DNA of 40,901 bases from a virus (taxonomy: Duplodnaviria; Heunggongvirae; Uroviricota; Caudoviricetes), in IMG/VR virus record IMGVR_UViG_2563366888_000019, positions 1-40,901 of that record. One strand, given 5' to 3'. Positions 1-38,343 of the stretch are shown here, in pieces. The notes beneath the pieces are model-generated. The model made no database searches and was not told the origin of the DNA. It saw only the letters and a list, made by a program, of their open reading frames with translations. A program made the translations under genes and the position numbers. Each line of letters opens with the position of its first letter. Within the stretch, counting starts at the first letter, position 1.

Positions 1-516
1 ATGAAATTTAAAAAATGTCTTCTGCCTGTGGCAATGTTAGCGTCATTCACTCTGGCAGGATGCCAGTCAAATGCTGACGATCATGCTGCCGATGTTTATC
101 AAACCGATCAACTGAATACCAAACAAGAAACTAAAACCGTTAATATTATTTCCATTCTTCCCGCAAAAGTTGCCGTAGACAACTCCCAAAATAAACGGAA
201 CGCACAAGCCTTCGGCGCGCTTATTGGCGCAGTCGCTGGCGGTGTTATCGGCCACAACGTCGGGTCTGGCAGCAATTCCGGAACGACGGCAGGTGCAGTT
301 GGCGGCGGAGCTGTAGGCGCGGCAGCGGGTTCTATGGTGAATGATAAAACCTTAGTGGAAGGTGTTTCTTTAACCTATAAGGAAGGCACCAAAGTGTATA
401 CCTCTACCCAGGTGGGTAAAGAGTGCCAGTTTACGACAGGTTTAGCCGTTGTTATTACCACGACGTATAACGAAACGCGTATTCAGCCAAATACCAAATG
501 TCCTGAAAAGAGCTAA
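1..516 (+). CDS. glycine-zipper lipoprotein (171 aa)
   Basis: ATG at position 1; signal peptide ending in lipobox LAGC; Gly/Ala-rich AVAGGVIGHNVGSG zipper segment; lies outside the phage late block. Confidence 0.6.
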   Translation: MKFKKCLLPVAMLASFTLAGCQSNADDHAADVYQTDQLNTKQETKTVNIISILPAKVAVDNSQNKRNAQAFGALIGAVAGGVIGHNVGSGSNSGTTAGAVGGGAVGAAAGSMVNDKTLVEGVSLTYKEGTKVYTSTQVGKECQFTTGLAVVITTTYNETRIQPNTKCPEKS

Positions 517-3585: not shown

Positions 3586-5771
3586 GAAACTTCCCCATTG
3601 GTTGAAAATATGGCTCCTCCAACGCCAAGTGTATTTCGTGTTGTGCTCAACCTCAGAGGGCTGGAGTCAGAATTAGAATATCCTGTAGCAGAAATAAAAG
3701 ATCCTCCACTAATAGTCAACTGCGGAACATCGGCTATATCTGAATAAGTTCTGTCAGCAACAGTATTATTTATAGCCACATATGATCCAAAAAAACTTCT
3801 TATTGTTTGGTTTTTAACTTTACTTCCTTCAATGGTTATCCTACTACCACAGTCGGCAATAAATCCTGAATCTGCATCCAGCGTTGCATTCATAAAAGAA
3901 GCTTCAGATCTCTCTACATCAATCCATCTAATATCTTTTGTGGGATTTGCACCAAATACATGACAAATATTAGAGTTAAACCTTACACCATCTTGGAGGT
4001 GCATTAATTTTTTTATATCTGTACCCCATAGCCTTGGAAAATTAACAGATGCTCCTGCATGGCAATCAAATCCCAGCTCAGCCCCTGAGATATCTACAGC
4101 CTTTCCTGAAATAACAGCACCAGTGTCTGCATTAACGGCTGTTCCACAATTGCGCATATCATTACCAGCAACATCAACGCAACCCGCACCATCAATACGC
4201 ACACCAAGTGCACATCCATAAAAACCTTTTTCAATATTTGGTTCAAGGACTTTACCACTTGTTTCTGCATCACTTTCTTCAACGTCATGTCGTCTTGCAT
4301 CAACATATGCTGTATGAATGCAGGTTAATCCACGATATGAGCAATGTATAGTTTTATGGTCGCGTATATTAACATTTGAACCATCTCTTACATTCCATCC
4401 TATATAACAATAGATTGCACTTGACCCCTGAAAATCTGCTTTAACATTATAAATACAATTAACTGACGCAACCGTACTCTCTGTGCACCGTTCAAACTTG
4501 CTTACAGGCATTGATGCCTTGACATTATTTACCAGTTGCAGGGAAGAGTATCTGCTATAAGAAAAATCACATACGTAATATCCTTCTGGCATATATGCAG
4601 CAACACTTTCCTCATCAGGAGCACATCCGGTATGATATGCACTAATTTTTGCACCAAAACTACCATGAATTCCAACGTAGAACTTTCGAGCACCTGAATA
4701 CGGATAGAAATTAAGTTCAGCTTTTTGAGTTACAATAAATGCACAAACATCGCTATCATCTCTATTTTCTTCGATCTGAATAGCAAATACAGGACTTTTT
4801 GCTGCATCGCAAATGTAAAATAAATACTTGTATTCGTAATACGTTCTAACGATTTTAGTAAACAAACGAGTGTCAGAGAAAACCACTGAGTCTTCTGATG
4901 TTATTTTAATCCAAGACAAATCAACACCTGAACTGAATTCAATTTGATAGTTGATAATATGCCCGGTCTTAATTCTTATTTCGCAGAAAGCATTACCACC
5001 ATCCCACATAGGTCTCATTGACTGGGCTGCAATGATTGCATCTTTGAGTGTAGGGTAATCACCCCATTCGCCAACAGTAATAACAAAAGTATAATATGAG
5101 TTAAAAACAGCGGCATTTTTGCCTTTGGATATCAACTCCTTAATCATAAAAATATTATCTTCGTAATCACAAGGAGAAATTATATCCCTCATTTTGCTTT
5201 GAAATGTTCGTTGTCTTGCCCCGCTTCCTGACGGTATAAACCAACCAAAACCACCAACAACCCCGGCGATTGCAGCATCGACATAATTACGCATTGAGCG
5301 ATTATTTACAGCGTCCTGCTCAAATGATGGATCTGCAAGGTTAGAAATTTTGTTTTGCTTTGCATCGTAATATTTTGCAAGCAAAGATGGTTTCATCAAT
5401 GCACGTCTGAACCACCCAAAACATCGCTGGATCAGCATCGTCAGGTAGTCAAATGCATCTTCATGAACTTCGGGGAAAAATTTTCCCTGATTGCGAAGAT
5501 CAGTCTCCTGCACCACATCAAGCACACGCTCTATCGTAATTCGCCAGCCAGCAGCAAGCGGCGACGGGAGAACCACTTCACCGCCACTATAAGTGCCCGC
5601 TCCAGTTACCTTATAACCGGTATCCAGAACCAATTCTGTTACGTTCCCGTTCAGGTCAGACACCTGAACAACCAGGTCTGATTTTTTGAAAATACGGAAG
5701 GTATACGGAAACGATGTCGTAACGCCGTTACCGGTGTATTCGTTGTGGTCAACTTCGGTTGAGACCGTCAT
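3582..5771 (-). CDS. tailspike / tail fibre with T7-type N-terminal adaptor and beta-helix-like C-terminal domain (729 aa)
   Basis: N-terminal ~120 aa resemble the conserved podovirus tail-fibre adaptor domain; C-terminal part AT-rich, Gly/Asn/Ser/Cys-rich. Confidence 0.8.
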   Translation of the reverse strand: MTVSTEVDHNEYTGNGVTTSFPYTFRIFKKSDLVVQVSDLNGNVTELVLDTGYKVTGAGTYSGGEVVLPSPLAAGWRITIERVLDVVQETDLRNQGKFFPEVHEDAFDYLTMLIQRCFGWFRRALMKPSLLAKYYDAKQNKISNLADPSFEQDAVNNRSMRNYVDAAIAGVVGGFGWFIPSGSGARQRTFQSKMRDIISPCDYEDNIFMIKELISKGKNAAVFNSYYTFVITVGEWGDYPTLKDAIIAAQSMRPMWDGGNAFCEIRIKTGHIINYQIEFSSGVDLSWIKITSEDSVVFSDTRLFTKIVRTYYEYKYLFYICDAAKSPVFAIQIEENRDDSDVCAFIVTQKAELNFYPYSGARKFYVGIHGSFGAKISAYHTGCAPDEESVAAYMPEGYYVCDFSYSRYSSLQLVNNVKASMPVSKFERCTESTVASVNCIYNVKADFQGSSAIYCYIGWNVRDGSNVNIRDHKTIHCSYRGLTCIHTAYVDARRHDVEESDAETSGKVLEPNIEKGFYGCALGVRIDGAGCVDVAGNDMRNCGTAVNADTGAVISGKAVDISGAELGFDCHAGASVNFPRLWGTDIKKLMHLQDGVRFNSNICHVFGANPTKDIRWIDVERSEASFMNATLDADSGFIADCGSRITIEGSKVKNQTIRSFFGSYVAINNTVADRTYSDIADVPQLTISGGSFISATGYSNSDSSPLRLSTTRNTLGVGGAIFSTNGEVS

Positions 5772-5874
5772 GTTAAATCTCCAGATAGTCGCAGCACCCG
5801 TTGCGCCGCATATCTGGCTATTCTATTACCTGAAAAACCACATATGGATAGAAAGACTGTGAATACGAATAGAT

Positions 5875-5891
5875 ATTACCTTTCAGGTAAT
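5875..5891. promoter_or_regulatory. operator-like 17-bp palindrome ATTACCTTTCAGGTAAT (site 1, perfect)
   Basis: perfect 7-3-7 inverted repeat in divergent intergenic region between tailspike and antirepressor-like gene. Confidence 0.6.
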
Positions 5892-5927: not shown

Positions 5928-5947
5928 TACTGTATAAATATACAGTT
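5928..5947. promoter_or_regulatory. LexA (SOS) box TACTGTATAAATATACAGTT
   Basis: CTGT-N8-ACAG, 18/20 match to the E. coli consensus as recalled; ends 20 bp upstream of ATG 5967. Confidence 0.7.
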
Positions 5948-5966
5948 ATTGCATGGAGAAGATAAG

Positions 5967-6224
5967 ATGCAGCAGTATCACTATCCACTGGAAGACGGAT
6001 TTACCGAAAGGATTCACACGCCGGGAGGCGTCAGGTCACTGGTGGAGGGATCGCATTTGATGAAATTACTCCGGGATCTCGATAAGGATGGATTTAATGT
6101 CGATGGCCCACTTGCCGAACTGACTGCACTGATTAACTACGTCACCAGCTCACAGATGTCTATGCAGGATCTGCAAACACATCTCGACTATTGTGCCGAA
6201 CAATTACGAAAACAAACCACATAA
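5967..6224 (+). CDS. small antirepressor-like protein (85 aa), probably SOS-controlled
   Basis: GGAGAAG SD; LexA box in its promoter; ~40% identity by eye to the C-terminal domain of the Bro-N protein at 7693..8388. Confidence 0.55.
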   Translation: MQQYHYPLEDGFTERIHTPGGVRSLVEGSHLMKLLRDLDKDGFNVDGPLAELTALINYVTSSQMSMQDLQTHLDYCAEQLRKQTT

Positions 6225-7299: not shown

Positions 7300-7454
7300 C
7301 ATTCTATCGAAAGTATACGCTCACTGGCAAAAAAATAGGCAGGTATTTTCTGAAATGGGATCAATCAAACCACATAGGGTTGAAATGACGTGAGTTATGC
7401 ATTTATCATTACCTTTGCGGTAAATTTACATTGCACTCCTCTTGTGCCATAGTA

Positions 7455-7540
7455 ATCGGGCACTGGCAAAATCCAGTGCCGGGATTGGCGTTCCGGATTA
7501 CTAAAAGGCGCATTCACCGCGCAAGCGGTTTTTTTATGCG
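7455..7540 (+). ncRNA. candidate structured RNA / leader element with terminator
   Basis: 10-bp-stem hairpin CGGGCACTGG-N6-CCAGTGCCGG followed by ACCGC-GCAA-GCGGT plus T7 terminator; no credible ORF. Confidence 0.3.
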
Positions 7541-7692
7541 TATAGCACGGCCACATTCGTATTATGGTGGGCTGTGTGGGGGCACCGAAAGGTGCGCCGG
7601 GTCCTTTTAGCCGGTTACGCCAACCCTGCACAGTTCACCACCAACCGATTGGCGTCGGTAGTGGTGATTAACCAGACTAAAAGGTAACCACT

Positions 7693-8388
7693 ATGACAGC
7701 TACAAAAAGCACGTCCATTTTTTCTTTCGAATCCCAAGCCGATATACGAGTAATCGTCATAAATGGTGAGCCATGGTTTATCGCTTCAGATGTTTGTCGG
7801 GCTATAGGCATAGCAAACCATCGAGATGCTGTTCGAAAACTTGATGATGATGAGAAGGGCGTCGCTTCAACCGACACCCCTGGCGGTGAGCAAGAATCGA
7901 TCATCATCTCCGAGTCAGGCCTCTACACACTGATCCTCCGCTGCCGCGACGCAGTGACACCAGGCACTATCCCCTACCGCTTTCGTAAATGGGTTACAGG
8001 TGAGGTTCTTCCTCAGATCCGCCGCACCGGAAGTTACATTAAAAACTCGCTCCCGCAGGAAGAACGCATAAAGATGGTTGCCGACCAGGTAGCCAACGCC
8101 ACAGCATCAGCAGTGATGCAGGCAATGAAGATAGAGAACAAAACCTACAGCGCCCCACTGAAGCCCGGCTACCGCAGTTTGATTCACTCGCCGTCTGGTG
8201 TTCTCGGCCTGACGGAGAACTCACTGCTGATGAATCTGCTGAACCAGTTACAGGAAGACGGGCACGACGTATCGGGCGCGGCGGCGGAGCTGACCACCAT
8301 GTTCTGCTACATCGTCGGTGTGAGTAAATGCCTGCGTGATATCCAGACCCACGCGGAATACATCAACGACAAAGCAGGGTTCTTCTGA
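7693..8388 (+). CDS. Bro-N domain antirepressor-type protein (231 aa)
   Basis: N-terminal region matches BRO-N pattern; C-terminal domain paralogous to 5967..6224; AAAAGG SD. Confidence 0.7.
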   Translation: MTATKSTSIFSFESQADIRVIVINGEPWFIASDVCRAIGIANHRDAVRKLDDDEKGVASTDTPGGEQESIIISESGLYTLILRCRDAVTPGTIPYRFRKWVTGEVLPQIRRTGSYIKNSLPQEERIKMVADQVANATASAVMQAMKIENKTYSAPLKPGYRSLIHSPSGVLGLTENSLLMNLLNQLQEDGHDVSGAAAELTTMFCYIVGVSKCLRDIQTHAEYINDKAGFF

Positions 8389-9304: not shown

Positions 9305-9318
9305 TGTGACATGTCACG

Positions 9319-25541: not shown

Positions 25542-25609
25542 ATCAATGACTCCGTACGCAATTAAATTATTACCAATTTAACCACATATGATTTATTTAT
25601 CGTAGATGG

Positions 25610-25638
25610 TTGACATTTAACGCACAAATTATTACCTT
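25610..25638 (+). promoter_or_regulatory. candidate promoter (-35 TTGACA) facing the tRNA
   Basis: TTGACA at 25610-25615; poor -10 (TACCTT) overlapping palindrome site 4. Confidence 0.3.
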
Positions 25639-25647
25639 TCAGGTAAC
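25631..25647. promoter_or_regulatory. operator-like palindrome ATTACCTTTCAGGTAAC (site 4)
   Basis: same core as site 1; between head operon start and tRNA. Confidence 0.55.
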
Positions 25648-25968: not shown

Positions 25969-26045
25969 GTGGCATTAGCTCAGTTGGACAGAGCAACCGC
26001 CTTCTAAGCGGTTGGTCGCAGGTTCGAATCCTGCATGCCACGCCA
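25969..26045 (+). tRNA. tRNA-Arg (anticodon UCU)
   Basis: 77 nt; acceptor stem GTGGCAT/ATGCCAC, T-loop GGTTCGAATCC, anticodon loop CTTCTAA, discriminator G and encoded CCA; close to host argU-type tRNA as recalled. Confidence 0.85.
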
Positions 26046-26243: not shown

Positions 26244-26615
26244 ATGAACGACCAGTAAATCGAAAAAGAAATCGCAGCCAAGGGTAAGACGGCGGCTCGC
26301 GTTACTCCTGAACACATTGCCAGCATAATCGCCAGCGAACATTACTTTACGGCCGCTGATGGTGCTCGCTTTGCTCATGTGCAGAGAAGCGAAACATACA
26401 GCGTAAAAATCCCAGACCAGCCTGACGAGCTGGAGCTGCTGACATTCTGCGTACTGGTGCTGAAGAATGGCTTCACTGTCACCGGAGAGAGTGCCTGTGC
26501 AAGTCCGGAAAATTTTGATGCAGAAATTGGTCGGAAGATTGCCCGGCAGAATGCTGTAAACAAAATCTGGATGCTTGAAGGTTACTTGCTGAAGCAGAAG
26601 TTAAGCGAGCAATAA
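26244..26615 (+). pseudogene. 123-codon ORF interrupted by in-frame TAA at codon 5 (alternatively a 78-aa CDS from GTG 26379)
   Basis: AAGGTGAG SD then ATG AAC GAC CAG TAA; same frame stays open and protein-like for 119 codons. Confidence 0.4.
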
Positions 26616-26635
26616 CACATTGACATGTCACAAAC

Positions 26636-26705: not shown

Positions 26706-28181
26706 TTAAGCATACGGGTCATAATCTGTGATGGCCTTGCCTTGCTGGTTCTGCTGCCAGGGAAGTCGCAGGCGCTTCGACACCGGGAAAGCAAACGTCA
26801 GCAGCAGCGCATCGCCTTTACCCGGCGAACGCCCAAGTCGCTCTTTGATATCTTCCTTCGGTTCGATAACGATTTTACCGTCCACTCGAACTTTGTACTC
26901 TGCCGCCGACAGGTCGTCTGCAGTTTCCTGGTCATCCAGCATGCCGCCCAGCCTCAGCCATGTCTTACATGAGTTGAACATCTCCCCACGCTTGTTGAGC
27001 ATCTGCGGGTCAGTAGACGCGCCACCGAACGGAACAAGTTGCCATGTACGACCCCAGCCGTCACCGATTGACTTCAGACCAGTTCCGTAACCGAAGTCGA
27101 TGAACACTGCGTCAGCCTGGTACTGGTCTTCAAAGTCAGCGATACGCTTCGCCATAATCAGATCGTCAGTGGTCTTGTTGCCAGTCCACAGCACCTTACT
27201 GTGCAGCCCCTGCCGCAGGTATATCACAGCGTCATCAACGCCTGAGTATGCCGGGTCAACGCCGATTATCACCGGAGCATGTGCAACCTGCGCAGCGGTG
27301 ACCACCCGTTTCATTGCCTCGTCAGTAAGTCCGGTAGGGATAAACTGCAATTCAGATGCATCCGGGAATATGCCGCGCACACGGATTTTAACGAAGTCGC
27401 TGTCTTCCCCGTAGTCATCAACCCATTTCTGCAACTGCTGTTTGTTGGTGCCTTCCACCGTCCGGCTGTCAATCTGCGCAGTTTTCCAGCGGTGTTTATA
27501 TTTGCGGAAACATTCGCGGAAACGTCCGGTATTACGCGTCGGGTTTCCGAACGCCACCCAGATAATCTCAGTGTCTTCGTCCGTTAGCGCACCCTCGGCA
27601 ACTTCCCACACCAGATCCGCAATGTTCGACGCTTCATCGAATACCACGATGATGCGTTTGCGCTCGTTGTGTAGTCCGGCGAATGCCTCAGTGTTGTGCT
27701 CAGACCAGGGTATTGCGTCAGCTCGCCACCGCTTGTCGTGTCCAGGATCATTGCTGTACATCGCGGTAGCGGTACAGGTAAACCAGTCTTTCGTGATAGC
27801 AAGGTTCGACCACTTGATAATTTCCGGCCAGGTCTTCGTTCGTAGCTGGTTGTCGGTGTTGGCGGTCACCACAACCTTACAATCCTCGCAAGTGGACATG
27901 CCCCAGTTGATCAGCATTGAGATGAATGCGGATTTACCAATACCGTGACCCGAAGCGCGTGCCAGCATAAGCGGCTGATAGCGCGTCTCTGGATTCTGCA
28001 GGTGATCACGTATCTCTCGGAACGCATCAGCCTGCCACTGACGTGGACCGGTGGCATGTGCCAGTTCAGTCCCATCTTCCCCCCACGGGAACGCATAGAG
28101 GGCATAGCCAAGCGGATCGTGAGTGAACCCTGCAATATCCTCGATTAACTGCTCTTCAGGAGATAACGCTGTATCTGTCAC
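26706..28181 (-). CDS. terminase large subunit (491 aa)
   Basis: Walker A-like SGHGIGKS; GTG start overlapping TerS stop; position before portal. Confidence 0.8.
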   Translation of the reverse strand: MTDTALSPEEQLIEDIAGFTHDPLGYALYAFPWGEDGTELAHATGPRQWQADAFREIRDHLQNPETRYQPLMLARASGHGIGKSAFISMLINWGMSTCEDCKVVVTANTDNQLRTKTWPEIIKWSNLAITKDWFTCTATAMYSNDPGHDKRWRADAIPWSEHNTEAFAGLHNERKRIIVVFDEASNIADLVWEVAEGALTDEDTEIIWVAFGNPTRNTGRFRECFRKYKHRWKTAQIDSRTVEGTNKQQLQKWVDDYGEDSDFVKIRVRGIFPDASELQFIPTGLTDEAMKRVVTAAQVAHAPVIIGVDPAYSGVDDAVIYLRQGLHSKVLWTGNKTTDDLIMAKRIADFEDQYQADAVFIDFGYGTGLKSIGDGWGRTWQLVPFGGASTDPQMLNKRGEMFNSCKTWLRLGGMLDDQETADDLSAAEYKVRVDGKIVIEPKEDIKERLGRSPGKGDALLLTFAFPVSKRLRLPWQQNQQGKAITDYDPYA

Positions 28182-28774
28182 TGATTACCATCCTGACGTT
28201 CTTTGAGTCGCTTCCTGGCTGCTGCTATGCGATCAGCAATTGTCACATTCACATTAACATCCAGACGTTCTTTGAATGCGTTGACATCAACATGCTTACC
28301 AATCAGCTCAAGGTTCTTCACCTTGTCAGGCCATTTAATTTTTTTGAGGATTGTCTCTATCGAATCCTCGTTCATGTTCATGATGGTCGATGACAGATCA
28401 AAGCCGCTAAGCGTAGTGCGCCAGATTTTCGGCCACTCGCGGATTGGCTTAAGGCTCCCATCGTCGTTGAGGATGTCGATCACGTCCATCTGGTCGATCT
28501 CCACCAGGCGCATGAGAACGTAATCAGCACTGACGCGCATTCGTTTGTTGCGCTCCTCCATCAACTCGGCAATCCGTTTCTGAATGCGTTCATCGCGCAT
28601 CATGACACTGGCTTTAACTGCCGCTGTATTTGGGGAGAATCCTGCGTTAATCGCAGCCTGAGTCTGATTTTCAGGCGTTTTGATGTATGACTGGCAATAA
28701 GCCTCCTGCATTGCTGTTAGTGGCTTAAATTGCGTTGATTTGCGTTTATAGGTTTTAGGTTCAGCAGGCATCAT
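28178..28774 (-). CDS. terminase small subunit (198 aa)
   Basis: HTH segment LTAMQEAYCQSYI...TQAAINAGFS typical of small terminases; ATG-ATG at 28774 after GGTGG SD; track start 28852 is a TTG extension through a terminator. Confidence 0.7.
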   Translation of the reverse strand: MMPAEPKTYKRKSTQFKPLTAMQEAYCQSYIKTPENQTQAAINAGFSPNTAAVKASVMMRDERIQKRIAELMEERNKRMRVSADYVLMRLVEIDQMDVIDILNDDGSLKPIREWPKIWRTTLSGFDLSSTIMNMNEDSIETILKKIKWPDKVKNLELIGKHVDVNAFKERLDVNVNVTIADRIAAARKRLKERQDGNQ

Positions 28775-28789
28775 AACCACCGTGGTAAT
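28773..28789. promoter_or_regulatory. operator-like palindrome ATAACCACCGTGGTAAT (site 5a)
   Basis: overlaps TerS start codon and SD. Confidence 0.45.
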
Positions 28790-28790
28790 A

Positions 28791-28807
28791 GTTACCGTTG
28801 TGGTAAT
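28791..28807. promoter_or_regulatory. operator-like palindrome GTTACCGTTGTGGTAAT (site 5b)
   Basis: adjacent to 5a; near-identical to site 13 in reverse. Confidence 0.5.
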
Positions 28808-28816
28808 AGTACCATG

Positions 28817-28843
28817 CAAAATAAAGCCGCCATAGTTGGCGGC
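28817..28843 (-). terminator. rho-independent terminator upstream of terminase genes
   Basis: GCCGCC-AACTAT-GGCGGC then TTTATTTTG on minus strand. Confidence 0.65.
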
Positions 28844-28848
28844 AGTAT

Positions 28849-29061
28849 TCAAAGTCCATCAAATTCATCGTAAAAACTCTCGTCAAGATACCCTTTCCAT
28901 TTACCGCGAATGAAAATTACATCCTCGCCGCAAGGGTGCTGACTGTCGATAACTATATCCCTCCTGGCGCAACCATACTTATGCATGAGAAATTTAACCT
29001 CTTTCGGAAAATTAGCTGAGTTATCTCTCATATCTTCAAGGTCGTAGCGTATTTTTGGCAT
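28849..29061 (-). CDS. hypothetical protein (70 aa)
   Basis: GAAGGTG SD before ATG 29061. Confidence 0.4.
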   Translation of the reverse strand: MPKIRYDLEDMRDNSANFPKEVKFLMHKYGCARRDIVIDSQHPCGEDVIFIRGKWKGYLDESFYDEFDGL

Positions 29062-29078
29062 AACACCTTCGTGACATG

Positions 29079-29417
29079 TCACACTATTAATTTCGTTTCA
29101 TGCCAGCCTTTGGTCACCCAGCATTGCGAGTCACCATTACACGGGCATGAATTAACTGGAACTCTCTCGCCGCACTTACCGCAACGTTTTCTGCTGATCG
29201 ATTTTATACGCCCGCGCACCCGGGCATCATCCTGGCGGATCAGCAGCGCGATGTACTCGGCCATTTCATAGGGATCTCGACCAGGGCGCCGGGCGGCGCA
29301 GTTCCGCTCCAGCATTTCAATTTCCTGAGCATCAAGCACAATCTCCAGCTTACGCACACCAGATGCAGCTTGTCTGGCTCTCTGAGCGGCTTTGCGCTCT
29401 GCTGCTGATTTAGCCAT
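29079..29417 (-). CDS. hypothetical protein with C-terminal Cys-rich zinc-ribbon-like motif (112 aa)
   Basis: basic Ala/Arg-rich N-terminus; CGKCGERVPVNSCPCNG. Confidence 0.45.
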   Translation of the reverse strand: MAKSAAERKAAQRARQAASGVRKLEIVLDAQEIEMLERNCAARRPGRDPYEMAEYIALLIRQDDARVRGRIKSISRKRCGKCGERVPVNSCPCNGDSQCWVTKGWHETKLIV

Positions 29418-29691
29418 CAATATTTACCTTTATCGCGTATACCTTTACCGGTTTATCACCGAAGTGTGGATGTATGATTGTCTTGATTTCATACCCTTCA
29501 TACGGGACGTCTATTCTGCGACTGGAATCGTCGCGCTTCGGATATCCCTTTGTGATAATCAGTCGGTCATACTCCCGGAACATAATTCGCTTATTCCAGT
29601 AGTCATTACACAGGCGATACTCTTCCGTTTTATCTCCGCGAATCATGGCATCGAAGTATTCACCTTTGAGGATAAGTTGCAGGTTAGCCAC
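29410..29691 (-). CDS. hypothetical protein (93 aa)
   Basis: GTG start 7 nt after AAGGAG. Confidence 0.45.
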   Translation of the reverse strand: MANLQLILKGEYFDAMIRGDKTEEYRLCNDYWNKRIMFREYDRLIITKGYPKRDDSSRRIDVPYEGYEIKTIIHPHFGDKPVKVYAIKVNIDG

Positions 29692-30424
29692 GGTTAACTC
29701 CTTGCTGTGTGGCGTCGAGTAATAAATCCCACAACCGCTGAGAGCAATTTCCGCATGTACAGCGTTGACCCACAACGTTTATCGCGTTGCTGATTTCCGG
29801 CGTTACCTGTTTAGGAACCATAACCCAACCATCCGGAGTTACCGGAAGCGAGAACGGCAGCACATCTCTGTGAACAAGTTTTTGCTGTGACAGGTTATCC
29901 AGAACTTTCTGTACTGCTACATCACCGAATACACCAAGCGCATCTGCCATAACTCCTACAACCTGATAAGCCTCAGCGCATACCGTGGATAAACCATCCG
30001 GAATTACCGGAGAGTTGCCGGGTTCTTTAATGTGCAAGCGAGGCTCACCATCTTTTGGCTCAGGCCACTGGCGCTCCATGTTGATCTTCAATTTATCTTC
30101 CATAGCAACGTTAATTTCAGCATCGCTGATGCCAGCACGGCGCTGTGCATCCCACAACAGAAACTGCATATCAGCCCACTCGCTAAGATCGTCTGGTTCG
30201 GCTGCGGCTTCCAGTGCCTCTTTTGAGAGGTGTTTCAGTGGACCAATGGGGCCAACGCAGCCAAATGTGGAGTCAGACCATTTGGCATGCTCGTGGCGAA
30301 TCTGTTCGCGTTCCAGTGATGCCAGTGCAATTCGTGCCAGTTCCATTTGTTCGCCACGAGTAAGCCCGTTTTCAAGCGGATTTTTAATGAACAATTCAAT
30401 ACGTTCTTTGGTAATAGTGGTCAT
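29684..30424 (-). CDS. nin-region-type phage protein (246 aa), possibly DUF550/DUF551-like
   Basis: ATG overlaps upstream stop; family assignment from memory, tentative. Confidence 0.5.
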   Translation of the reverse strand: MTTITKERIELFIKNPLENGLTRGEQMELARIALASLEREQIRHEHAKWSDSTFGCVGPIGPLKHLSKEALEAAAEPDDLSEWADMQFLLWDAQRRAGISDAEINVAMEDKLKINMERQWPEPKDGEPRLHIKEPGNSPVIPDGLSTVCAEAYQVVGVMADALGVFGDVAVQKVLDNLSQQKLVHRDVLPFSLPVTPDGWVMVPKQVTPEISNAINVVGQRCTCGNCSQRLWDLLLDATQQGVNRG

Positions 30425-30630
30425 GTGTTAATCCTCAAAACTTTATGCCCGGGCGCAAAAGTACGTGTTTTGTCTTTGCTTATTCGCCACCCGTCTTTAC
30501 GGGCCTCTTTTGCACAACCAGACCATGACGTACCGATATACTCACCGAAGTCTGGCACTGGATATACACCTTCCGTACACTGGCGACAATCACAATAGAG
30601 ATGCATGGTGTAACTTGCGGCAATAGCCAT
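30421..30630 (-). CDS. small Cys-rich protein (69 aa)
   Basis: ATG 30630 two nt after upstream stop; CDCRQC motif. Confidence 0.4.
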   Translation of the reverse strand: MAIAASYTMHLYCDCRQCTEGVYPVPDFGEYIGTSWSGCAKEARKDGWRISKDKTRTFAPGHKVLRINT

Positions 30631-30631
30631 A

Positions 30632-31240
30632 TCAGTCTCCTTTGATGCGAATGCCAGTAGCGCGGATTGCATCGATGACTTCAGAAACTTTGTATGCCAT
30701 TACCGTTTGGTAATCATCGTGAAAATCTGTTCGATGAAGCATGCTGCTACGTTCTGGGAGCGATATTTCCCGTGCTTCCAGTTCTGCAATGCGCTTCTCT
30801 GCGGCTTCCAGCTTCTCGCGCATATCGTCAACGTACTCGACCAGAGAACCGCCAGCAGGAATTTCGCACTCCTCGACTAGTTGGAAGTAGATATCCGCTG
30901 CGGCCCGTGTGTTGCTATGCCTAGCGTCGCCCATCTCACCTTCACGAAGAGCATCGCGTTCGGCGGTAAGATTGGCTATTTTGCTGTCTTTGCCTTCCAG
31001 CTCAACGCGCAACTTCCCTACCGTTAGCGCAATATCCTCGTTCTCCTGATCGCGGCTTTTGATGTATTGCAGGTTTCTTTCCCGTTCATCCAACAATGCC
31101 AGCGCGATATCTGGCGAAAAGTGCTTCATAAAATCGTTAAGCGCATTAATTCGCTGATCGAAAGGCATTACAGGTGCTTCACCAGCAATTTTTGTTTTTT
31201 CAGCGATTTCACGAAGCTTTTGATAATCAATCTTGCTCAT
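30632..31240 (-). CDS. Ead/Ea22-like protein (202 aa)
   Basis: N-terminus MSKIDYQKLREIAEK resembles Ea22-like family; coiled-coil centre. Confidence 0.55.
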   Translation of the reverse strand: MSKIDYQKLREIAEKTKIAGEAPVMPFDQRINALNDFMKHFSPDIALALLDERERNLQYIKSRDQENEDIALTVGKLRVELEGKDSKIANLTAERDALREGEMGDARHSNTRAAADIYFQLVEECEIPAGGSLVEYVDDMREKLEAAEKRIAELEAREISLPERSSMLHRTDFHDDYQTVMAYKVSEVIDAIRATGIRIKGD

Positions 31241-31812
31241 TGGATGACTCCTTTACGAAGCTGTTCGGCGATATCTTCGAGAACGCCATCAGAGAATGAA
31301 CGGTCAAAATCGCCTTCCGGCGCATTAGCCATAAACTCAGTAGAGGTAAGAATCATCCGGGCAATATCCGCGGCGTTCTTCGCAGTATCATCAATAAAAC
31401 CAGCTTCCCAGGCAGCCAGCATTCTGTTCGCCACAAAGTAAGCGCCCTCCTTGCGTGCTTCAGTCTTCACTTCAGCCAGGAAAGCATCGGTGGCTGGGGT
31501 GTCTGATTGCAGAGACTTTGCGCGATAGTCATTCCACCCTCTTGCATACATGGGATTAACTTGCACTCCATCTTTTACGCAATATGCCTGCCCTCCACGG
31601 TTGATAACCTTGATTTCGTCCATAGCGCCAGACTTCATCCCCGCATTCTCCGCAGCCAGCGCATTAGCACGCACCAGTTGCACTTCCAGTTGCGTTGCCA
31701 AATCGCTGATCAGTTTTGCCACACTACGCATATCAACGGCACCACATTCTGCTTTCAGTTCCGAAGCCATCTCATGCCCGGCGGCAACTAACCCTTTGAT
31801 ATTACTTTCCAT
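31237..31812 (-). CDS. hypothetical early protein (191 aa)
   Basis: ORF with ATG start; stop overlaps the downstream start (ATGA). Confidence 0.5.
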   Translation of the reverse strand: MESNIKGLVAAGHEMASELKAECGAVDMRSVAKLISDLATQLEVQLVRANALAAENAGMKSGAMDEIKVINRGGQAYCVKDGVQVNPMYARGWNDYRAKSLQSDTPATDAFLAEVKTEARKEGAYFVANRMLAAWEAGFIDDTAKNAADIARMILTSTEFMANAPEGDFDRSFSDGVLEDIAEQLRKGVIQ

Positions 31813-31873
31813 CTTTACCCTCGCTTATCCACATAACTTATTGATTACATTGATAACTAAAAAGATCGTCGAT

Positions 31874-32221
31874 TCAGAACTCTTCGATGTTCCAGCCACC
31901 ACCTGCTTTCTTTGGCTTAACCGTTACCCCGATGATTCGGAACGGATACTGATCTGCGGCGACTTTGGTTTTCACTCTGGCGTCATCGGTCCAGAATCCC
32001 CCTTTCACTTCGTGCAGTTCCATCTCGCCGGTGGCGAGCATCACAGCAAAATCTGGCGTATAGAACGTGTTGTCAGCTAACCGCAGCTTGATACCCTCAA
32101 ATCGATACCAGACGATTTCTCCTGCACGTTTACGCAACTCAAGGTGCTGGCAATACGCAGATTCTGTTTTGTTCATCTGGCCTGTTTTGAGTCGACCAAG
32201 AGCCTGCATCTGTTTTCTCAT
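31874..32221 (-). CDS. DUF1064-type phage protein (115 aa)
   Basis: family assignment from memory; GAGG SD inside palindrome site 6. Confidence 0.5.
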   Translation of the reverse strand: MRKQMQALGRLKTGQMNKTESAYCQHLELRKRAGEIVWYRFEGIKLRLADNTFYTPDFAVMLATGEMELHEVKGGFWTDDARVKTKVAADQYPFRIIGVTVKPKKAGGGWNIEEF

Positions 32222-32223
32222 GA

Positions 32224-32240
32224 TTTACCTCTGAGGTAAT
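32224..32240. promoter_or_regulatory. operator-like palindrome TTTACCTCTGAGGTAAT (site 6)
   Basis: 3 bp upstream of ATG 32221; candidate minus-strand promoter (TTGATT-N17-TTTAAT) just upstream. Confidence 0.55.
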
Positions 32241-32285
32241 TAAAAACCACATAAGACACGAAATCAATAGAGTTTAGAATATTTT

Positions 32286-32302
32286 ATTACCTGATGGGTA
32301 AT
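32286..32302. promoter_or_regulatory. operator-like palindrome ATTACCTGATGGGTAAT (site 7)
   Basis: centre exactly 62 bp from site 6. Confidence 0.55.
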
Positions 32303-32338: not shown

Positions 32339-33139
32339 TTACTTGATAAATCCTGCCGCCTTTCCCCGCCTGTATTCCTCCATCAGCCACTGCGCCGGTG
32401 TTATTCCCCCAAGGGTGGCGGCGTTAGGCATGCACCCGAAACTTCGCCCAGGTGGATGGTAAACGTCTCTCCCTGTGTCCGGAGGTGTACTCATGGGCTC
32501 TGGCTTTGCCTGTATGCTGATCACCGGATCGGGTATCTGCTGTCCGGAAGCCACCTTTTTCGCCCAATCATCGAGCAGCCTGCGCGCGTGTTTCTCAACC
32601 TCAATCTCGCTAAGCTGGCGCTGATACATTGCACGGCGGGTATCACATACGACCCAGTACATAACCGGATGTCGCCACGGGAATCTTTCGGGACCACCAG
32701 GATATAAACTTTTTTCCTTGCTGTACCGGTGAAACTCCGCCATCACATCGTCAATGGTGACGCCAAGAACCATCTTGCTGTCTTTACACCACTTGATGAA
32801 TTGCCCTGGCGACGGCCAGAACGGAGACTCACTGGCGCGGGCGTGGCGCATACCAGCAGAAACCTGTTCACGGGTTCGGATCCCCCCTTCGGCAAACGCA
32901 GCAATCCACTGCTGTTTTGCAGCAACTTCCTGCTCTGGCGTCTTCAGGTTGGTTACCACTGCCGCCGGAAACAGTTGTTTCAGCTGTTTGAAAAGGGCAT
33001 CAACAAGCCTCTCTGCTGACATGTTCACCACGTTGTCATTGTTGGTGTACTGATGCTCATAACCTGACATGCGAGAAAGGGCTTCTCCGTCACGGTTTTG
33101 TATCGCGGTAAAAACGTTGTTCACAAGAAATCCTCCCAT
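32339..33139 (-). CDS. replication protein P-like helicase loader (266 aa, start uncertain)
   Basis: SPFWPSPGQFIKWC matches the lambda P PFLPSPGQFVAWC region as recalled; follows O-like gene. Confidence 0.7.
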   Translation of the reverse strand: MGGFLVNNVFTAIQNRDGEALSRMSGYEHQYTNNDNVVNMSAERLVDALFKQLKQLFPAAVVTNLKTPEQEVAAKQQWIAAFAEGGIRTREQVSAGMRHARASESPFWPSPGQFIKWCKDSKMVLGVTIDDVMAEFHRYSKEKSLYPGGPERFPWRHPVMYWVVCDTRRAMYQRQLSEIEVEKHARRLLDDWAKKVASGQQIPDPVISIQAKPEPMSTPPDTGRDVYHPPGRSFGCMPNAATLGGITPAQWLMEEYRRGKAAGFIK

Positions 33140-33936
33140 GCTTCAGGGCTGTTCCAGTGCGGAACGTTGTTATCAGGTAATGTTGATTGCTTCTGTCTGC
33201 TAATCTGCAGCCGCCTTGCCAGCTTCTGCTCCCACTGTGCCTGATGGTATGCCTTACCCTCAGCCATCCAGTAAATTCTGAACTCTGCAAGTTCCTGTGC
33301 CGTTGGCAGACTGTCCAGGTAGATCCCCTGCAATGAGCTTTTCCGAAGAAAGTCATCTGATGGTTGCCATTGTTCATGCATGACAAATTTGCCTAATTGC
33401 CCTAGCCCACCAGGAGGAATAAAGTTATTCATCACGGCGTTGTTTGCGCCGGGGTCATGAGGCACAGAATCCCCGTTTTTTGTCCTGCTCTCCCTCTCTT
33501 GGTTAAATGACTGGTTATATGACTGGTTCTGGATCCCGTTTTTGGGATCATTCAACATCCCGTTTTTGGGATCATTCAACATCCCGTTTTTGGGTATATT
33601 CCCTTTTTCGGTAACATTACCGTTTTCGGGTTCATTGCCACCCTCACGGTTGCCTTTAATGTTCCCGTTTTTGGTTATATTAAGAGAGAAAACCCGCACT
33701 CTTTTTGTCGCTCCCTTTCTCTCTCCGGTATCTGAAATAAGCCCCATTTTCATGAGCGATATAAGCCCGGCCTGCACGGTTTTTTTATTCAGGCAAGTGT
33801 CTTTAACGAGGCGTTCTATGCTGGGGTAGCAGAGGTTATATTCATCGGCTCTGTCAGCCATCGAGAGCAGTATGAGCTTTAATGATGAGCTACCTGGATC
33901 TGTCTCCCAGGCCCAATCTGTTGCATGTCTGCTCAT
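33121..33936 (-). CDS. replication initiator O-like protein with internal origin (271 aa)
   Basis: N-terminal HTH-type domain; iteron array inside the CDS encodes PKNGMLND repeats; GGAG SD. Confidence 0.7.
   Translation of the reverse strand: MSRHATDWAWETDPGSSSLKLILLSMADRADEYNLCYPSIERLVKDTCLNKKTVQAGLISLMKMGLISDTGERKGATKRVRVFSLNITKNGNIKGNREGGNEPENGNVTEKGNIPKNGMLNDPKNGMLNDPKNGIQNQSYNQSFNQERESRTKNGDSVPHDPGANNAVMNNFIPPGGLGQLGKFVMHEQWQPSDDFLRKSSLQGIYLDSLPTAQELAEFRIYWMAEGKAYHQAQWEQKLARRLQISRQKQSTLPDNNVPHWNSPEAWEDFL
33533..33680. repeat. origin iterons (3 near-perfect 24-bp repeats plus about 3 degenerate copies)
   Basis: ATCCCGTTTTTGGGATCATTCAAC x2, ATCCCGTTTTTGGGTA, then degenerate CCGTTTT-containing copies; each has internal dyad ATCCC-N6-GGGAT. 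Confidence 0.7.
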
Positions 33937-33951
33937 GATTAATCTCCGCTA

Positions 33952-34152
33952 TCAGCTTGAGTGTTGTGGGGAGGAATTAATCATGATCTGCTTAATCTCT
34001 GCCCTGATGCGACGGTTTGATTCCATGGTGCACTCAACACAGTGTCCGTTGTAAACCCAGCGTTCACTGTCATGTCCGTGCTTACATGTTTTTCCGGTGT
34101 AGTAGCGTTTAAGTCCGCGCTTTGCGGCATCAATACGTGTAATGATTTCCAT
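33952..34152 (-). CDS. small basic Cys/His-rich protein (66 aa)
   Basis: ATG at 34152; CKHGHDSERWVYNGHCVEC motif; between Cro-like and O-like genes. Confidence 0.4.
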   Translation of the reverse strand: MEIITRIDAAKRGLKRYYTGKTCKHGHDSERWVYNGHCVECTMESNRRIRAEIKQIMINSSPQHSS

Positions 34153-34231
34153 GGTAAGCCCTGTTATTAGTATTGGGATTACGGTTATTTTGTGCTGACA
34201 CAAAAAAAAGATCAACCATATTTGGTTTTTT

Positions 34232-34248
34232 ATTACCTTTGAGGTACG
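34232..34248. promoter_or_regulatory. operator-like palindrome ATTACCTTTGAGGTACG (site 8)
   Basis: between Cro-like gene stop and the 33952..34152 gene. Confidence 0.45.
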
Positions 34249-34302
34249 AATAGATATGAAAAGACCGCCGGATGGCGGTCTACAGAGGGTTGTGGCTGGA
34301 TA

Positions 34303-34533
34303 TCATGAGTAGAAGAAGTATGCCAGTTCTGCTTTTGAGCGCAGCCATTGTCTTGTTTTACAGGCTTTAAAAAGCCCATTCATCAATACCTTACCTGGCA
34401 TTTTGCGCTTACCTGTTAAGTGAGTCTGGATATAGTGACTCGTCGTTCCGGCTTCCTGTGCGAAGGCTTCACGCTCATCCGGAGTAAGTGCAAGCCAGTG
34501 CTTTTTGAAATCGAAATGTCCGTTATCGCTCAT
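34303..34533 (-). CDS. Cro-like HTH regulator (76 aa)
   Basis: first gene of minus-strand early operon, divergent from repressor; HTH-like EAFAQEAGTTSHYIQTHL. Confidence 0.5.
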   Translation of the reverse strand: MSDNGHFDFKKHWLALTPDEREAFAQEAGTTSHYIQTHLTGKRKMPGKVLMNGLFKACKTRQWLRSKAELAYFFYS

Positions 34534-34687: not shown

Positions 34688-35272
34688 ATGAAAAGTATCC
34701 AGGACGTCCGCAGGCAAAATCTCAACGACTTGATCGACCGTGAATTCAATGGTGTTCAGACGCGGATGGCTGAAAAACTTGGAACTCAGGCAAATCTGGT
34801 AAACCGCTGGGCTCTTGGCAAGAAGGTTATCGGCGACCAGGTTGCGCGAAAAATTGAAGCTGCCGCCAATAAACCCCGTAACTGGCTTGATATCGATCGC
34901 TCGCTTTCTCAGGAAGGTTTTCAGCCTGTCGGACCAAGCGACATTGGTCAACTGGCGGCTCACAACCTGGAACGCTGGATGAGCGAAAGCCGCGACCTTT
35001 CAACGCAGGGAAAACTTCACCGCGCATCCGGCGTCGCCCAGGTGACAATCAGCCGCCTGTTAAACAATGAGGTCAGCGTTTCCATTTCCACCCTGGAGAA
35101 TGTTGCATCCGCATTCGGGCGTCACGGCTATGAATTACTGATTCACCCGCACGACCCTGCGACTATCAACTATGACCGCTCGCGCTACGCTTTGTTACCC
35201 GAAACCGAGAAAGCAAAGATCGAAAGTTACATTGAATTTGTCATCAACCAGAACGAAAAAAACAAACAATAA
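34688..35272 (+). CDS. prophage repressor candidate, tandem HTH, no S24 peptidase domain (194 aa)
   Basis: two HTH-like segments (QTRMAEKLGTQANLVNRWALG and ASGVAQVTISRLLNNEVSVS); no Ser-Lys autocleavage motifs; divergent from Cro-like; weak SD; terminator follows. Confidence 0.55.
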   Translation: MKSIQDVRRQNLNDLIDREFNGVQTRMAEKLGTQANLVNRWALGKKVIGDQVARKIEAAANKPRNWLDIDRSLSQEGFQPVGPSDIGQLAAHNLERWMSESRDLSTQGKLHRASGVAQVTISRLLNNEVSVSISTLENVASAFGRHGYELLIHPHDPATINYDRSRYALLPETEKAKIESYIEFVINQNEKNKQ

Positions 35273-35328: not shown

Positions 35329-35345
35329 ATTACCTAACGGGTAAT
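35329..35345. promoter_or_regulatory. operator-like palindrome ATTACCTAACGGGTAAT (site 12, perfect half-sites)
   Basis: 19 bp upstream of -35 TTGACA. Confidence 0.6.
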
Positions 35346-35363
35346 TTTTTTAACTCATATCTA

Positions 35364-35392
35364 TTGACACCAAACCAGATACGCATAATTAT
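35364..35392 (+). promoter_or_regulatory. early-left promoter candidate
   Basis: -35 TTGACA at 35364-35369, AT-rich -10 region about 17 bp later, flanked by sites 12 and 13. Confidence 0.45.
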
Positions 35393-35407
35393 TACCTCAA
35401 CGGTAAC
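35391..35407. promoter_or_regulatory. operator-like palindrome ATTACCTCAACGGTAAC (site 13)
   Basis: overlaps -10/+1 of the early-left promoter; centre 62 bp from site 12. Confidence 0.6.
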
Positions 35408-37934: not shown

Positions 37935-38091
37935 GTGCGCTGCTAAGGCACTGGAGCAAATGGTCAGGATGGTACTTATTCCTGGCCTCTGTTTCAGCAT
38001 GGCTTTATCTGCTGGCATTAATTTTCAGAGAGGGTTGGATTAAGTGAGAAAGTTAAGCCGACTTGAAAAATATCACATGAATAAGGTTTCA

Positions 38092-38343
38092 ATGCGCAGT
38101 CCGTCAAAGATTGTCGCCGTTACTCCTGCGGCGATAGAGATCGAAAAACGCGCGATTGAAAGAGAGAAAAAAGGGCAGTTCCGCATTGCCGCTCACCTTT
38201 GGCTTCAGTGTATGGATGTTGCTTCTGGTGATGTTGAACGTGCAAGGATCGCGGTTCGCAGGGACCAATGTATCACAAAAGGTAACGGCCTTCGCCGTGG
38301 CGACTATAGCGGCATAGGATGTTGTGGGGTGGTTTATGACTAA
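38092..38343 (+). CDS. PerC-family transcriptional regulator-like protein (83 aa, start uncertain)
   Basis: GQFRIAAHLWLQCMDV...RDQC resembles PerC pattern; AAGG SD before ATG 38092. Confidence 0.5.
   Translation: MRSPSKIVAVTPAAIEIEKRAIEREKKGQFRIAAHLWLQCMDVASGDVERARIAVRRDQCITKGNGLRRGDYSGIGCCGVVYD

Follow-up and report, generated by a model that had tools for sequence, protein, structure and literature searches.

What divides the early genes of a temperate phage from its packaging genes, and what opens the packaging genes on induction, when no Q-type antiterminator gene can be recognized between them? The question is raised by the short region immediately upstream of the small terminase subunit gene (TerS) in IMG/VR virus record IMGVR_UViG_2563366888_000019, a Caudoviricetes sequence that was analyzed over its whole length of 40,901 nucleotides (the window). 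The window represents a prophage that belongs to the epsilon15/phiV10 group (genus Uetakevirus; epsilon15/phiV10/SPC32H-like), and across its aligned parts the 1.1 kb around the site shares 94-96% identity with phiV10, TL-2011b, vB_EcoP_ZX5, PAS61, and O157 typing phages 9 and 10, with Tyrion, epsilon15, SPN1S, and SPC32H being remoter relatives. Our reading, to which we give a probability of about 0.6, is that a terminator, an extended -10 promoter, and two operators of the prophage repressor Rep together separate the early-right operon from the TerS-TerL unit, with Rep shutting the promoter and blocking read-through, and the antirepressor Ant releasing this control. The features on which the reading rests are the following:

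28817..28843, minus strand: intrinsic terminator of the early-right operon, with stem-loop GCCGCCA-ACTA-TGGCGGC (28843..28826) and tail TTTATTTTG (28825..28817)
28806..28814, minus strand: predicted extended -10 element TGgTACTAT (P_terS), with a predicted start near 28799
28791..28807, minus strand: putative Rep operator A, ATTACCACAACGGTAAC, with one mismatch to ATTACC-N5-GGTAAT, overlapping the last two -10 bases and the predicted start site
28773..28789, minus strand: putative Rep operator B, ATTACCACGGTGGTTAT, with one mismatch, lying over the TerS Shine-Dalgarno (SD) sequence GGTGG (28781..28777) and the AT of the first ATG
28771..28178, minus strand: TerS, 197 aa from the conserved ATG (Pfam Terminase_2, E = 1e-29; phrog_51)
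28181 to 26706, minus strand: the large terminase subunit gene, TerL

Read along the minus strand, the order is the terminator tail TTTATTTTG, ca, TGG TACTAT, TACCACAACGGTAAC, t, ATTACCACGGTGGTTAT, G, and ATG.

A preliminary description, made from the sequence alone, had proposed that a strong minus-strand terminator closes the early (nin-like) operon, and the terminator scan, the fold energy, and the position all bear this out, the coordinates given for it being right as well. The hairpin has a 7-bp stem with six G-C pairs and a 4-nt loop, is followed by the 9-nt U-rich tract, has an energy of -13.8 kcal/mol, lies also within the minimum-energy fold of the region, and is the best minus-strand candidate in the 26-34 kb interval. 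It begins 6 nt past the TGA stop (28851..28849) of the last upstream open reading frame (ORF), with the linker atact between, and the end of its U tract is 43 nt from the first ATG (28774) and 46 nt from the conserved ATG (28771). Conservation was assessed across 80 related loci on viral contigs, among which there are 42 distinct upstream sequences, and the terminator is kept in 39 of these; no compensatory stem changes were seen, so that its conservation comes without covariation support. The element thus combines a G+C-rich hairpin and a U tract with a conserved position at the 3' end of a transcription unit, as an intrinsic terminator should, and in the RefSeq record of epsilon15 the last 27 bases, right after the gp49 gene, are marked as a rho-independent terminator.

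The two elements downstream of the terminator are 17-bp palindromes that lie 1 nt apart, or 18 bp from center to center, and the question of what binds them can be approached through epsilon15, whose six annotated repressor sites, all of the form (A)TTACC-N5-GGTAAT, gave us the consensus ATTACC-N5-GGTAAT. Sites with at most one mismatch at spacer 5 occur 11 times in the window against 0.08 expected (200 dinucleotide shuffles, the largest giving 2), which is an approximately 100-fold enrichment and is specific to that spacer, other spacers giving 0-1 matches. The TerS pair is conserved in the manner of binding sites. Operator A keeps the half-sites ATTACC and GGTAA(C/T) fixed across the 42 distinct relatives while its N5 spacer takes seven different forms, and operator B, with half-sites ATTAC(C/T) and GGT(T/A)A(T/C) and likewise seven different spacers, is present in all 42; the gap between the two is 1 nt in 39 and 3 nt in the other three. 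Fixed half-sites around a variable N5 are the pattern expected for protein-binding half-sites. In a Klebsiella phage operator B is degenerate. The epsilon15 record (NC_004775.2) carries the feature "protein_bind: repressor" at 12..27, just upstream of TerS (start 47); only this one TerS site is annotated there, whereas the window has a second, adjacent site over the SD, which by inspection is present in epsilon15 too. An alternative register, with GGTA-N4/5-TACC as the palindrome unit, was tried and dropped, as it gave only three matches per spacing and the ATTACC-N5-GGTAAT register explains all the sites.

The expected binder of these palindromes is the prophage repressor, and the window encodes homologues of both partners of the SPC32H Rep/Ant system (PDB 5D50), together with a LexA box before ant:

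34688..35272, plus strand: prophage repressor Rep, matching SPC32H repressor chain 5D50_A (E = 4e-42, residues 1-190)
5930..5945, plus strand: perfect LexA box CTGTATAAATATACAG, preceding ant
about 5964..6224, plus strand: antirepressor gene ant, matching SPC32H anti-repressor chain 5D50_E (E = 8.7e-47)

The remaining operators of the window are at 25631..25647, 5875..5891 (a perfect match, near the LexA box and ant), 7408, 8459, 32224/32286, 34617, and 35329/35391, and the mapped copies fall at intergenic boundaries, including those of the immunity region by rep and ant. In SPC32H, Rep is reported to bind palindromic DNA as a tetramer that is disassembled by Ant (PMC9638917), and in the ZX5 paper overexpression of the repressor abolishes the holin and endolysin transcripts, an effect in which direct and indirect control are not separable. 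Both TerS palindromes are therefore probably operators of the epsilon15/SPC32H-type Rep, to judge from consensus, enrichment, and conservation, and Rep would be expected to occupy each of them. The suggestion that the palindromes are operator-like has held up, and the binder that it left unnamed would be Rep. Their placement over the TerS SD and ATG was right for site B, which covers the SD and the AT of the first ATG, but the start itself probably has to be moved: the second ATG (28771) corresponds in alignments to the starts annotated for epsilon15 and TL-2011b and is most likely the conserved TerS start.

Two further pairs of operators stand exactly 62 bp apart from center to center, at 35329..35407 and at 32224..32302, and flank two sigma-70-like promoters. 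The two modules are alike base for base in their arrangement, which runs operator, 18 nt, -35, 17 nt, and -10 overlapping the second operator, and the spacing points to loop formation by Rep tetramers.

Direct repeats just before a TerS gene could also be read as recognition sites to which TerS itself binds during packaging, as pac or cosB-like sites comparable to the R sites of lambda, and the GenBank records of phiV10, epsilon15, Tyrion, and SPN1S do start less than 100 bp from the repeats. The repeats are not specific to this region, however, the same 17-bp palindrome consensus being found at 11 places in the window, and the starts of the relatives' records differ among themselves (at the window equivalents 28892, 28872, 28853, and 28817), so that they look like an annotation convention and not a mapped end. 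The annotators of epsilon15, moreover, linked its TerL to the headful-packaging terminase of Sf6 and labeled the site as a repressor site. A packaging site, whether cos or pac, is extremely improbable here, and the genome-wide operator consensus and the disagreeing record starts led us to set it aside.

Between the terminator and the operators, and partly within both, lies the predicted TerS promoter. The criterion for an extended -10 element is a TG at -15/-14, T at -12, A at -11, and T at -7, and all of these are invariant in the 42 distinct relatives; so are the whole TA and the final AT of P_terS, while the hexamer middle varies (TACTAT, TAGTAT, TATTAT, and TACCAT) and the n of TGn is free (G in 24, T in 13, and A in 5). 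Such a pattern would be expected of an extended -10 motif (TGnTAnnnT) and not of the GGTA of an operator half-site, in which the second G would be conserved. The element is also found in epsilon15, PAT1, Tyrion, the Klebsiella phage, and BUCT554, and a Samsonia prophage shows the order operator, TGgTATGAT, further ATTACC half-sites, and TerS. Furthermore, the overlap by which the last two bases of the hexamer serve as the AT of ATTACC recurs at three promoters of the window that have a recognizable -35:

operator 35391: PL-like promoter downstream of rep, TTGACA-17-AATTAT
operator 32224: promoter before the resolvase-like gene, TTGATT-17-TTTAAT
7380..7409, plus strand, operator 7408: promoter TTGAAA-18-TATCAT

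The generic promoter scan missed P_terS because its -35 is poor. On the conserved letters and the shared geometry, we think it likely that TerS has a real promoter here, one that would start and fire as predicted. The folding of the two possible transcripts points the same way as regards translation: read-through RNA (28822..28769, minus strand) is predicted to form a hairpin of -20.7 kcal/mol in which the operator palindromes cover the SD and AUG, whereas RNA from the predicted +1 folds with only -9.3 kcal/mol, so that promoter-initiated mRNA should be translated better than read-through RNA. The preliminary picture of a terminator followed by operators was correct in that both are present; it was incomplete in that a conserved extended -10 lies between them, so that the region would be not a barrier only.

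One may nevertheless ask whether a promoter is needed at all, since the sites could serve as stoperator-like roadblocks only, with TerS-TerL being expressed by partial read-through of the terminator once Rep has gone. That the sites are downstream of the terminator, that the same sites are dispersed through the genome, that there is no canonical -35, and that a standard promoter scan reports nothing at TerS would all fit. This account leaves unexplained why the TG is invariant while its neighboring base varies freely and why the geometry is identical to that of bona fide-looking promoters elsewhere in the window, and it requires passage through a -13.8 kcal/mol hairpin with a 9-nt U-rich tract, which should terminate efficiently, to yield an RNA that is predicted to bury its own SD and AUG. 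We therefore judge roadblocks without a promoter to be distinctly improbable.

In the mechanism that we propose instead, which is assembled from the sequence elements, their enrichment and conservation, and the Rep and Ant homologues, early-right transcription would stop at the 28843..28826 terminator, and TerS-TerL would be transcribed from its own sigma-70 extended -10 promoter. In the lysogen, Rep on operators A and B would occlude the -10 element and the start region, and the bound repressor would in addition be a roadblock to polymerase leaking past the terminator or coming from inserted morons. Upon SOS induction LexA would come off ant, Ant would strip Rep from its sites, and all the Rep-guarded promoters would open together; no Q-type antiterminator would be needed and, we infer, no further late activator either. 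It had been suggested earlier that late switching may await release of the factor bound to the palindromes; of the readings considered, this one has the best support, with Rep as the factor.

Several considerations weigh against this mechanism. Its main weakness is that control by Rep only would turn the packaging genes on together with the early genes, which is unusual for temperate phages. The -35 of P_terS (ATGGCG, matching at 3/6 and lying inside the terminator stem) is poor enough to suggest that an activator may be needed, and the AT of the -10 doubles as part of the operator, so that its conservation is partly non-independent. The TerS operators are adjacent (18 bp), in contrast to the 62-bp pairs at the PL-like and 32224 promoters. 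Finally, a conserved gene for a putative DNA-binding protein, with a candidate site, lies immediately upstream and could supply a required co-regulator.

Before that gene is considered, it should be said which known late regulators were sought. No match to a Q-family antiterminator was found among the ORFs of 28849..32221 or in the 87-aa ORF at 33952..34215 with Pfam, PHROGs, and NCBIfam, and no antiterminator or late activator was found with Pfam among the ORFs from 32339 to 34533 (cro-, O-, and P-like) or in the left operon. Nothing among the scanned early proteins resembled Q, N, Ogr/Delta, Mor, RinA/ArpU, or a sigma factor; PADLOC found no defense genes. A scan against Rfam at the gathering threshold for put-type RNA returned C4, isrK, and tRNA only, no arginine-rich N-like protein was seen in the first ORFs after the PL-like promoter (nut-type boxA/boxB were not searched for), and the promoter scan found no lambda-like short-RNA promoter upstream of the terminator on the minus strand from 29420 to 28843. 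The view that no recognizable lambda Q or other known late activator lies between the P-like gene and TerS agrees with the Pfam, PHROGs, and NCBIfam scans. The likeness to the PR'-qut-tR' region of lambda with its Q protein extends to a strong terminator between the early-right operon and the late genes and to a last early gene that encodes a small, Cys-containing candidate DNA-binding protein. The window differs from lambda in that neither a Q homologue of any family among the scanned ORFs nor a promoter or pause element ahead of the terminator was found, in having its promoter-like element downstream of the terminator and under prophage-repressor operators, and in having its late genes split into several separately guarded units. 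The late promoters of lambda are not known to be overlapped by prophage-repressor operators.

The gene in question, one of the two for small Cys-rich proteins that had been put forward as late-switch candidates, and its candidate site are as follows:

29079..29417, minus strand: epsilon15-gp49/N15-gp46-like "transcriptional regulator", 112 aa (phrog_536, E = 5.6e-55)
29071..29082: perfect palindrome of 12 bp, GTGACATGTCAC, which includes the TGA stop codon of the 112-aa gene and is a candidate binding site

The gp49 of epsilon15 is annotated as "similar to N15 gp46". The 112-aa protein has no Pfam match and no PDB match by sequence or by alignment profile, and its C-terminal part carries four Cys residues (C79, C82, C91, and C99) that are invariant across distant homologues. 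In the AlphaFold model, which is of moderate confidence (mean pLDDT 69), the N-terminal two-thirds is predicted to be a strand-less helix pair resembling the ribbon-helix-helix (RHH) fold, and a Foldseek search gave weak, non-significant RHH matches only (TTHA0139 and AtaR; E > 1). It is plausible that the protein is a DNA-binding regulator. Of the two Cys-rich proteins, this one is thus a plausible candidate with a candidate site, while the other, at 30421..30672 (phrog_926, unknown function), found no support.

The palindrome recurs twice in the window, as an exact copy at 9306..9317, which is 1 nt past the stop of the last structural-unit gene and abuts a terminator, and as a copy with one mismatch at 26620..26631, which is 4 nt past the stop of a convergent gene and 4 nt before that gene's terminator. 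In epsilon15 the copies number exactly three as well, each at the corresponding place (record positions 2142, 19517, and 39612), and three modules of the form stop codon, GTGACATGTCAC, and intrinsic terminator thus stand at unit ends in both the window prophage and epsilon15. GTGAC-N2-GTCAC lies at the stop of the homologue's gene, or within 5 nt of it, not only in epsilon15, TL-2011b, PAT1, Tyrion, and the Klebsiella phage but also, among phages that are otherwise unrelated, in N15 and phiKO2 (GTGACTGGTCAC) and in Pectobacterium phage ZF40; the same stop-codon palindrome is present in the P2-like Yersinia phage vB_YenM_31.17 (GTGACGCGTCAC) and in prophages of Pseudocitrobacter, Rosenbergiella, Pectobacterium polonicum, and a Pantoea. 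In the loci concerned it lies at position 4267 (L009), 3785 (L010), 3797 (L011), 1767 (L094), 1824 (L100 and L101), 1686 (L102), and 1788 (L103). Vibrio K233 and Aeromonas A051 have a copy elsewhere in the neighborhood, one K233 copy being 30 nt before TerS, and Aeromonas phage 13AhydR10PP has near-matches only; beside the Serratia, Symbiopectobacterium, and Samsonia homologues the palindrome was absent. For a specified 10-base pattern the chance expectation in 8 kb is about 0.008 occurrences; the association of gene and palindrome is therefore not chance, and the simplest inference is that the palindrome is probably the binding site of the 112-aa protein family. A literature search for the motif strings returned nothing relevant.

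This family could supply the regulator that is missing from the Rep mechanism. The 112-aa protein, acting on GTGACATGTCAC, would then either carry polymerase through the terminator, with the logic of Q and an unrelated sequence, or activate the weak TerS promoter from upstream, and Rep would add only a lysogenic lock. In each Uetakevirus examined its gene is the last conserved early gene and immediately precedes the late genes (the homologue is last or penultimate before TerS in all these relatives), its predicted fold suggests DNA binding, and GTGAC-N2-GTCAC is tied to its stop in most of the phage lineages examined. In epsilon15, where only about 30 nt separate the gene's stop from the terminator, the palindrome is 29 nt before the terminator and its center is about 73 bp upstream of the predicted TerS start; all three palindrome copies, in the window and in epsilon15, directly precede intrinsic terminators in the direction of transcription, and the poor -35 at TerS would suit an activator. 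The distance between palindrome and promoter is not kept, however, being about -73 for epsilon15 and about -91 for TL-2011b and exceeding 260 bp, with an intervening ORF, in the window and BUCT554, which argues against an activator working from a fixed position. Antitermination fares no better, since two of the three palindrome-terminator modules are at junctions of convergent genes (9306..9317 and 26620..26631), where it would create antisense transcription, so that a roadblock or insulator role fits these places better. N15, moreover, has the homologue and the palindrome and yet has a Q-like late activator of its own, with its promoter and terminator elsewhere; the palindrome is missing in the three genera named above; and the structure model is of moderate confidence only. 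With all this in view, we regard the 112-aa protein as unlikely to be the missing late regulator. A broader proposal, quite unlikely as we see it and offered tentatively, is that the phrog_536 family (epsilon15 gp49 and N15 gp46) is a class of regulators that read GTGAC-N2-GTCAC and load onto or block polymerase just before intrinsic terminators, and that in the Uetakeviruses it would act as a late switch or an insulator. If this were true, the site on the regulator's own stop codon would provide for autoregulation through truncation of its own mRNA.

Between the regulator gene and the terminator the window has one further gene:

28849..29061, minus strand: accessory ORF, about 70 aa (phrog_1541, unknown function, E = 4.5e-39)

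This ORF is missing in epsilon15, Tyrion, and PAT1, is reduced to an 8-codon remnant in TL-2011b/phiV10-type phages, and has its place taken by LexA-box morons in BUCT554 and Klebsiella ST512-KPC3phi13.3. The gap between the palindrome of the regulator gene and the terminator appears as an insertion hot spot (28849..29061 in the window; 1080..1500 in L005; 1160..1500 in L006; after 1827 in L100), with cargo elsewhere that includes a LexA-box umuD-like gene (BUCT554 and Pseudocitrobacter) and a LexA-box 85-aa ORF (Klebsiella ST512-KPC3phi13.3). The three variants without the terminator still carry the TGnTAnnAT element and both operators. In BUCT554, which is of this type, the annotated LexA-box umuD-like moron reaches up to the TerS control region, and with the terminator gone the Rep operators would be the sole barrier between an SOS-induced moron and TerS.

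TerS had been described as the entry to the late operon, a description that has to be revised, TerS-TerL being one of several site-guarded units and not the head of a single late operon. It forms a two-gene unit that is followed by a convergent plus-strand gene (26379..26615, Phage_gp49_66 family) and plus-strand terminators; the portal and other structural genes have the operator at 25631..25647 upstream, and that at 5875..5891 precedes the tailspike gene (start 5771). Epsilon15 is annotated likewise, with repressor sites before TerS, gp3, gp20, and gp43 and in the PL region. Putative Rep sites thus lie upstream of each transcription unit mapped and are not confined to an immunity region, and the TerS pair is distinct only in its adjacency.

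The late-gene strand carries another repeated element, the 9-mer TATGTGGTT, which has five exact copies against about 0.3 expected (5836..5844, 6215..6223, 7368..7376, 25580..25588, and 32245..32253), all on the minus strand. The copies are mostly intergenic and usually 29-41 nt downstream of a Rep operator, and the one at 6215..6223 is at the 3' end of ant, on the opposite strand; in the epsilon15 record the 9-mer is at positions 2990 and 24753. Before the portal operon the 9-mer stands at the head of a block of about 27 nt, TATGTGGTTAAATTGGTAATAATTTAA, which hardly varies among the window, epsilon15, and the Klebsiella phage and has a close counterpart in BUCT554, while the flanks diverge. 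The 9-mer could not be fitted as a substitute for a -35, as a -10, or as a site for sigma-54, IHF, or DnaA, and its distance to -10-like hexamers is inconsistent. The 9-mer and its block could be a late-promoter or leader element.

The rest of the gene layout is that of the group. The minus-strand early-right operon comprises a cro-like gene, an O-like gene (DnaT/HTH_36 domains), a lambda-P-like gene (PF06992), and a nin-like set, which consists of a DUF1064 resolvase-like gene, Ead/Ea22-like genes, and a gene with a dATP/dGTP pyrophosphohydrolase domain, and it ends with the 112-aa gene (29417..29079) and the accessory ORF (29061..28849). Other features are:

34303..34533, minus strand: cro-like gene of the early-right operon
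start 25320, minus strand: portal gene
25969..26042, plus strand: tRNA gene in the gap between TerL and portal, on the strand opposite the late genes
38044..38343, plus strand: homologue of the PerC-family "transcriptional activator" in the left operon (Pfam, E = 6e-7), the epsilon15 equivalent of which is annotated as gp31

Rfam places isrK (72 bits, 7460..7535, plus strand) and the C4 antisense RNA (78 bits, 7560..7645, plus strand) in tandem upstream of a Bro-N gene (7693..8388, plus strand), behind the Rep operator at 7408..7424 and the sigma-70-like promoter at 7380..7409. The set looks like a second antirepressor module of the P1 immI or Gifsy-1 kind. PhiV10-type phages are known for O antigen modification.

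Among known systems, the arrangement is mostly ordinary, in that it is already annotated in epsilon15 and belongs to the SPC32H-type Rep/Ant system. Epsilon15 has the same genus-level genome plan, the same terminator at the end of its gp49 gene, and the same operator consensus before TerS, the portal operon, the tailspike gene, and a replication-region gene and in the PL region; it differs from the window, which is an E. coli prophage, in that the window has the extra ORF of about 70 aa between regulator gene and terminator, and no promoter is annotated in the regions of the epsilon15 record that were examined. The gp71 "stoperators" of mycobacteriophage L5 are about 30 asymmetric 13-mers that are orientation-biased and dispersed, including within and before late genes. 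The window resembles L5 in having many dispersed repressor sites, some of which could block elongating polymerase, but its sites are symmetric 17-mers, number about 11-13, and in several cases lie over recognizable -10 elements, so that they look like classical promoter operators. In Gram-positive phages, late activators of the RinA, ArpU, and LtrC types are encoded just upstream of terS, which is where the 112-aa regulator gene is found at the early/late boundary; no sequence relationship to these activators was found, and the candidate site here, a palindrome, lies at the stop codon of the gene itself and is not at a constant distance from terS. What our analysis adds to the annotated arrangement is a further operator covering the SD, a conserved extended -10 element, the multi-unit control of the late genes, and the link between a regulator family and a palindrome.

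Operator palindromes on the start codon of terminase in the absence of a Q gene are, in this light, the normal design of epsilon15/phiV10/SPC32H-like prophages, and the design bears on how common prophages of E. coli and Salmonella are kept silent and how they are woken by SOS-driven antirepression. Two predictions that can be tested follow from it, namely that an extended -10 promoter under the control of Rep starts transcription near 28799 and that a widespread family of regulators recognizes the palindrome described above, and both make the timing of late-gene expression in the Uetakeviruses directly approachable.

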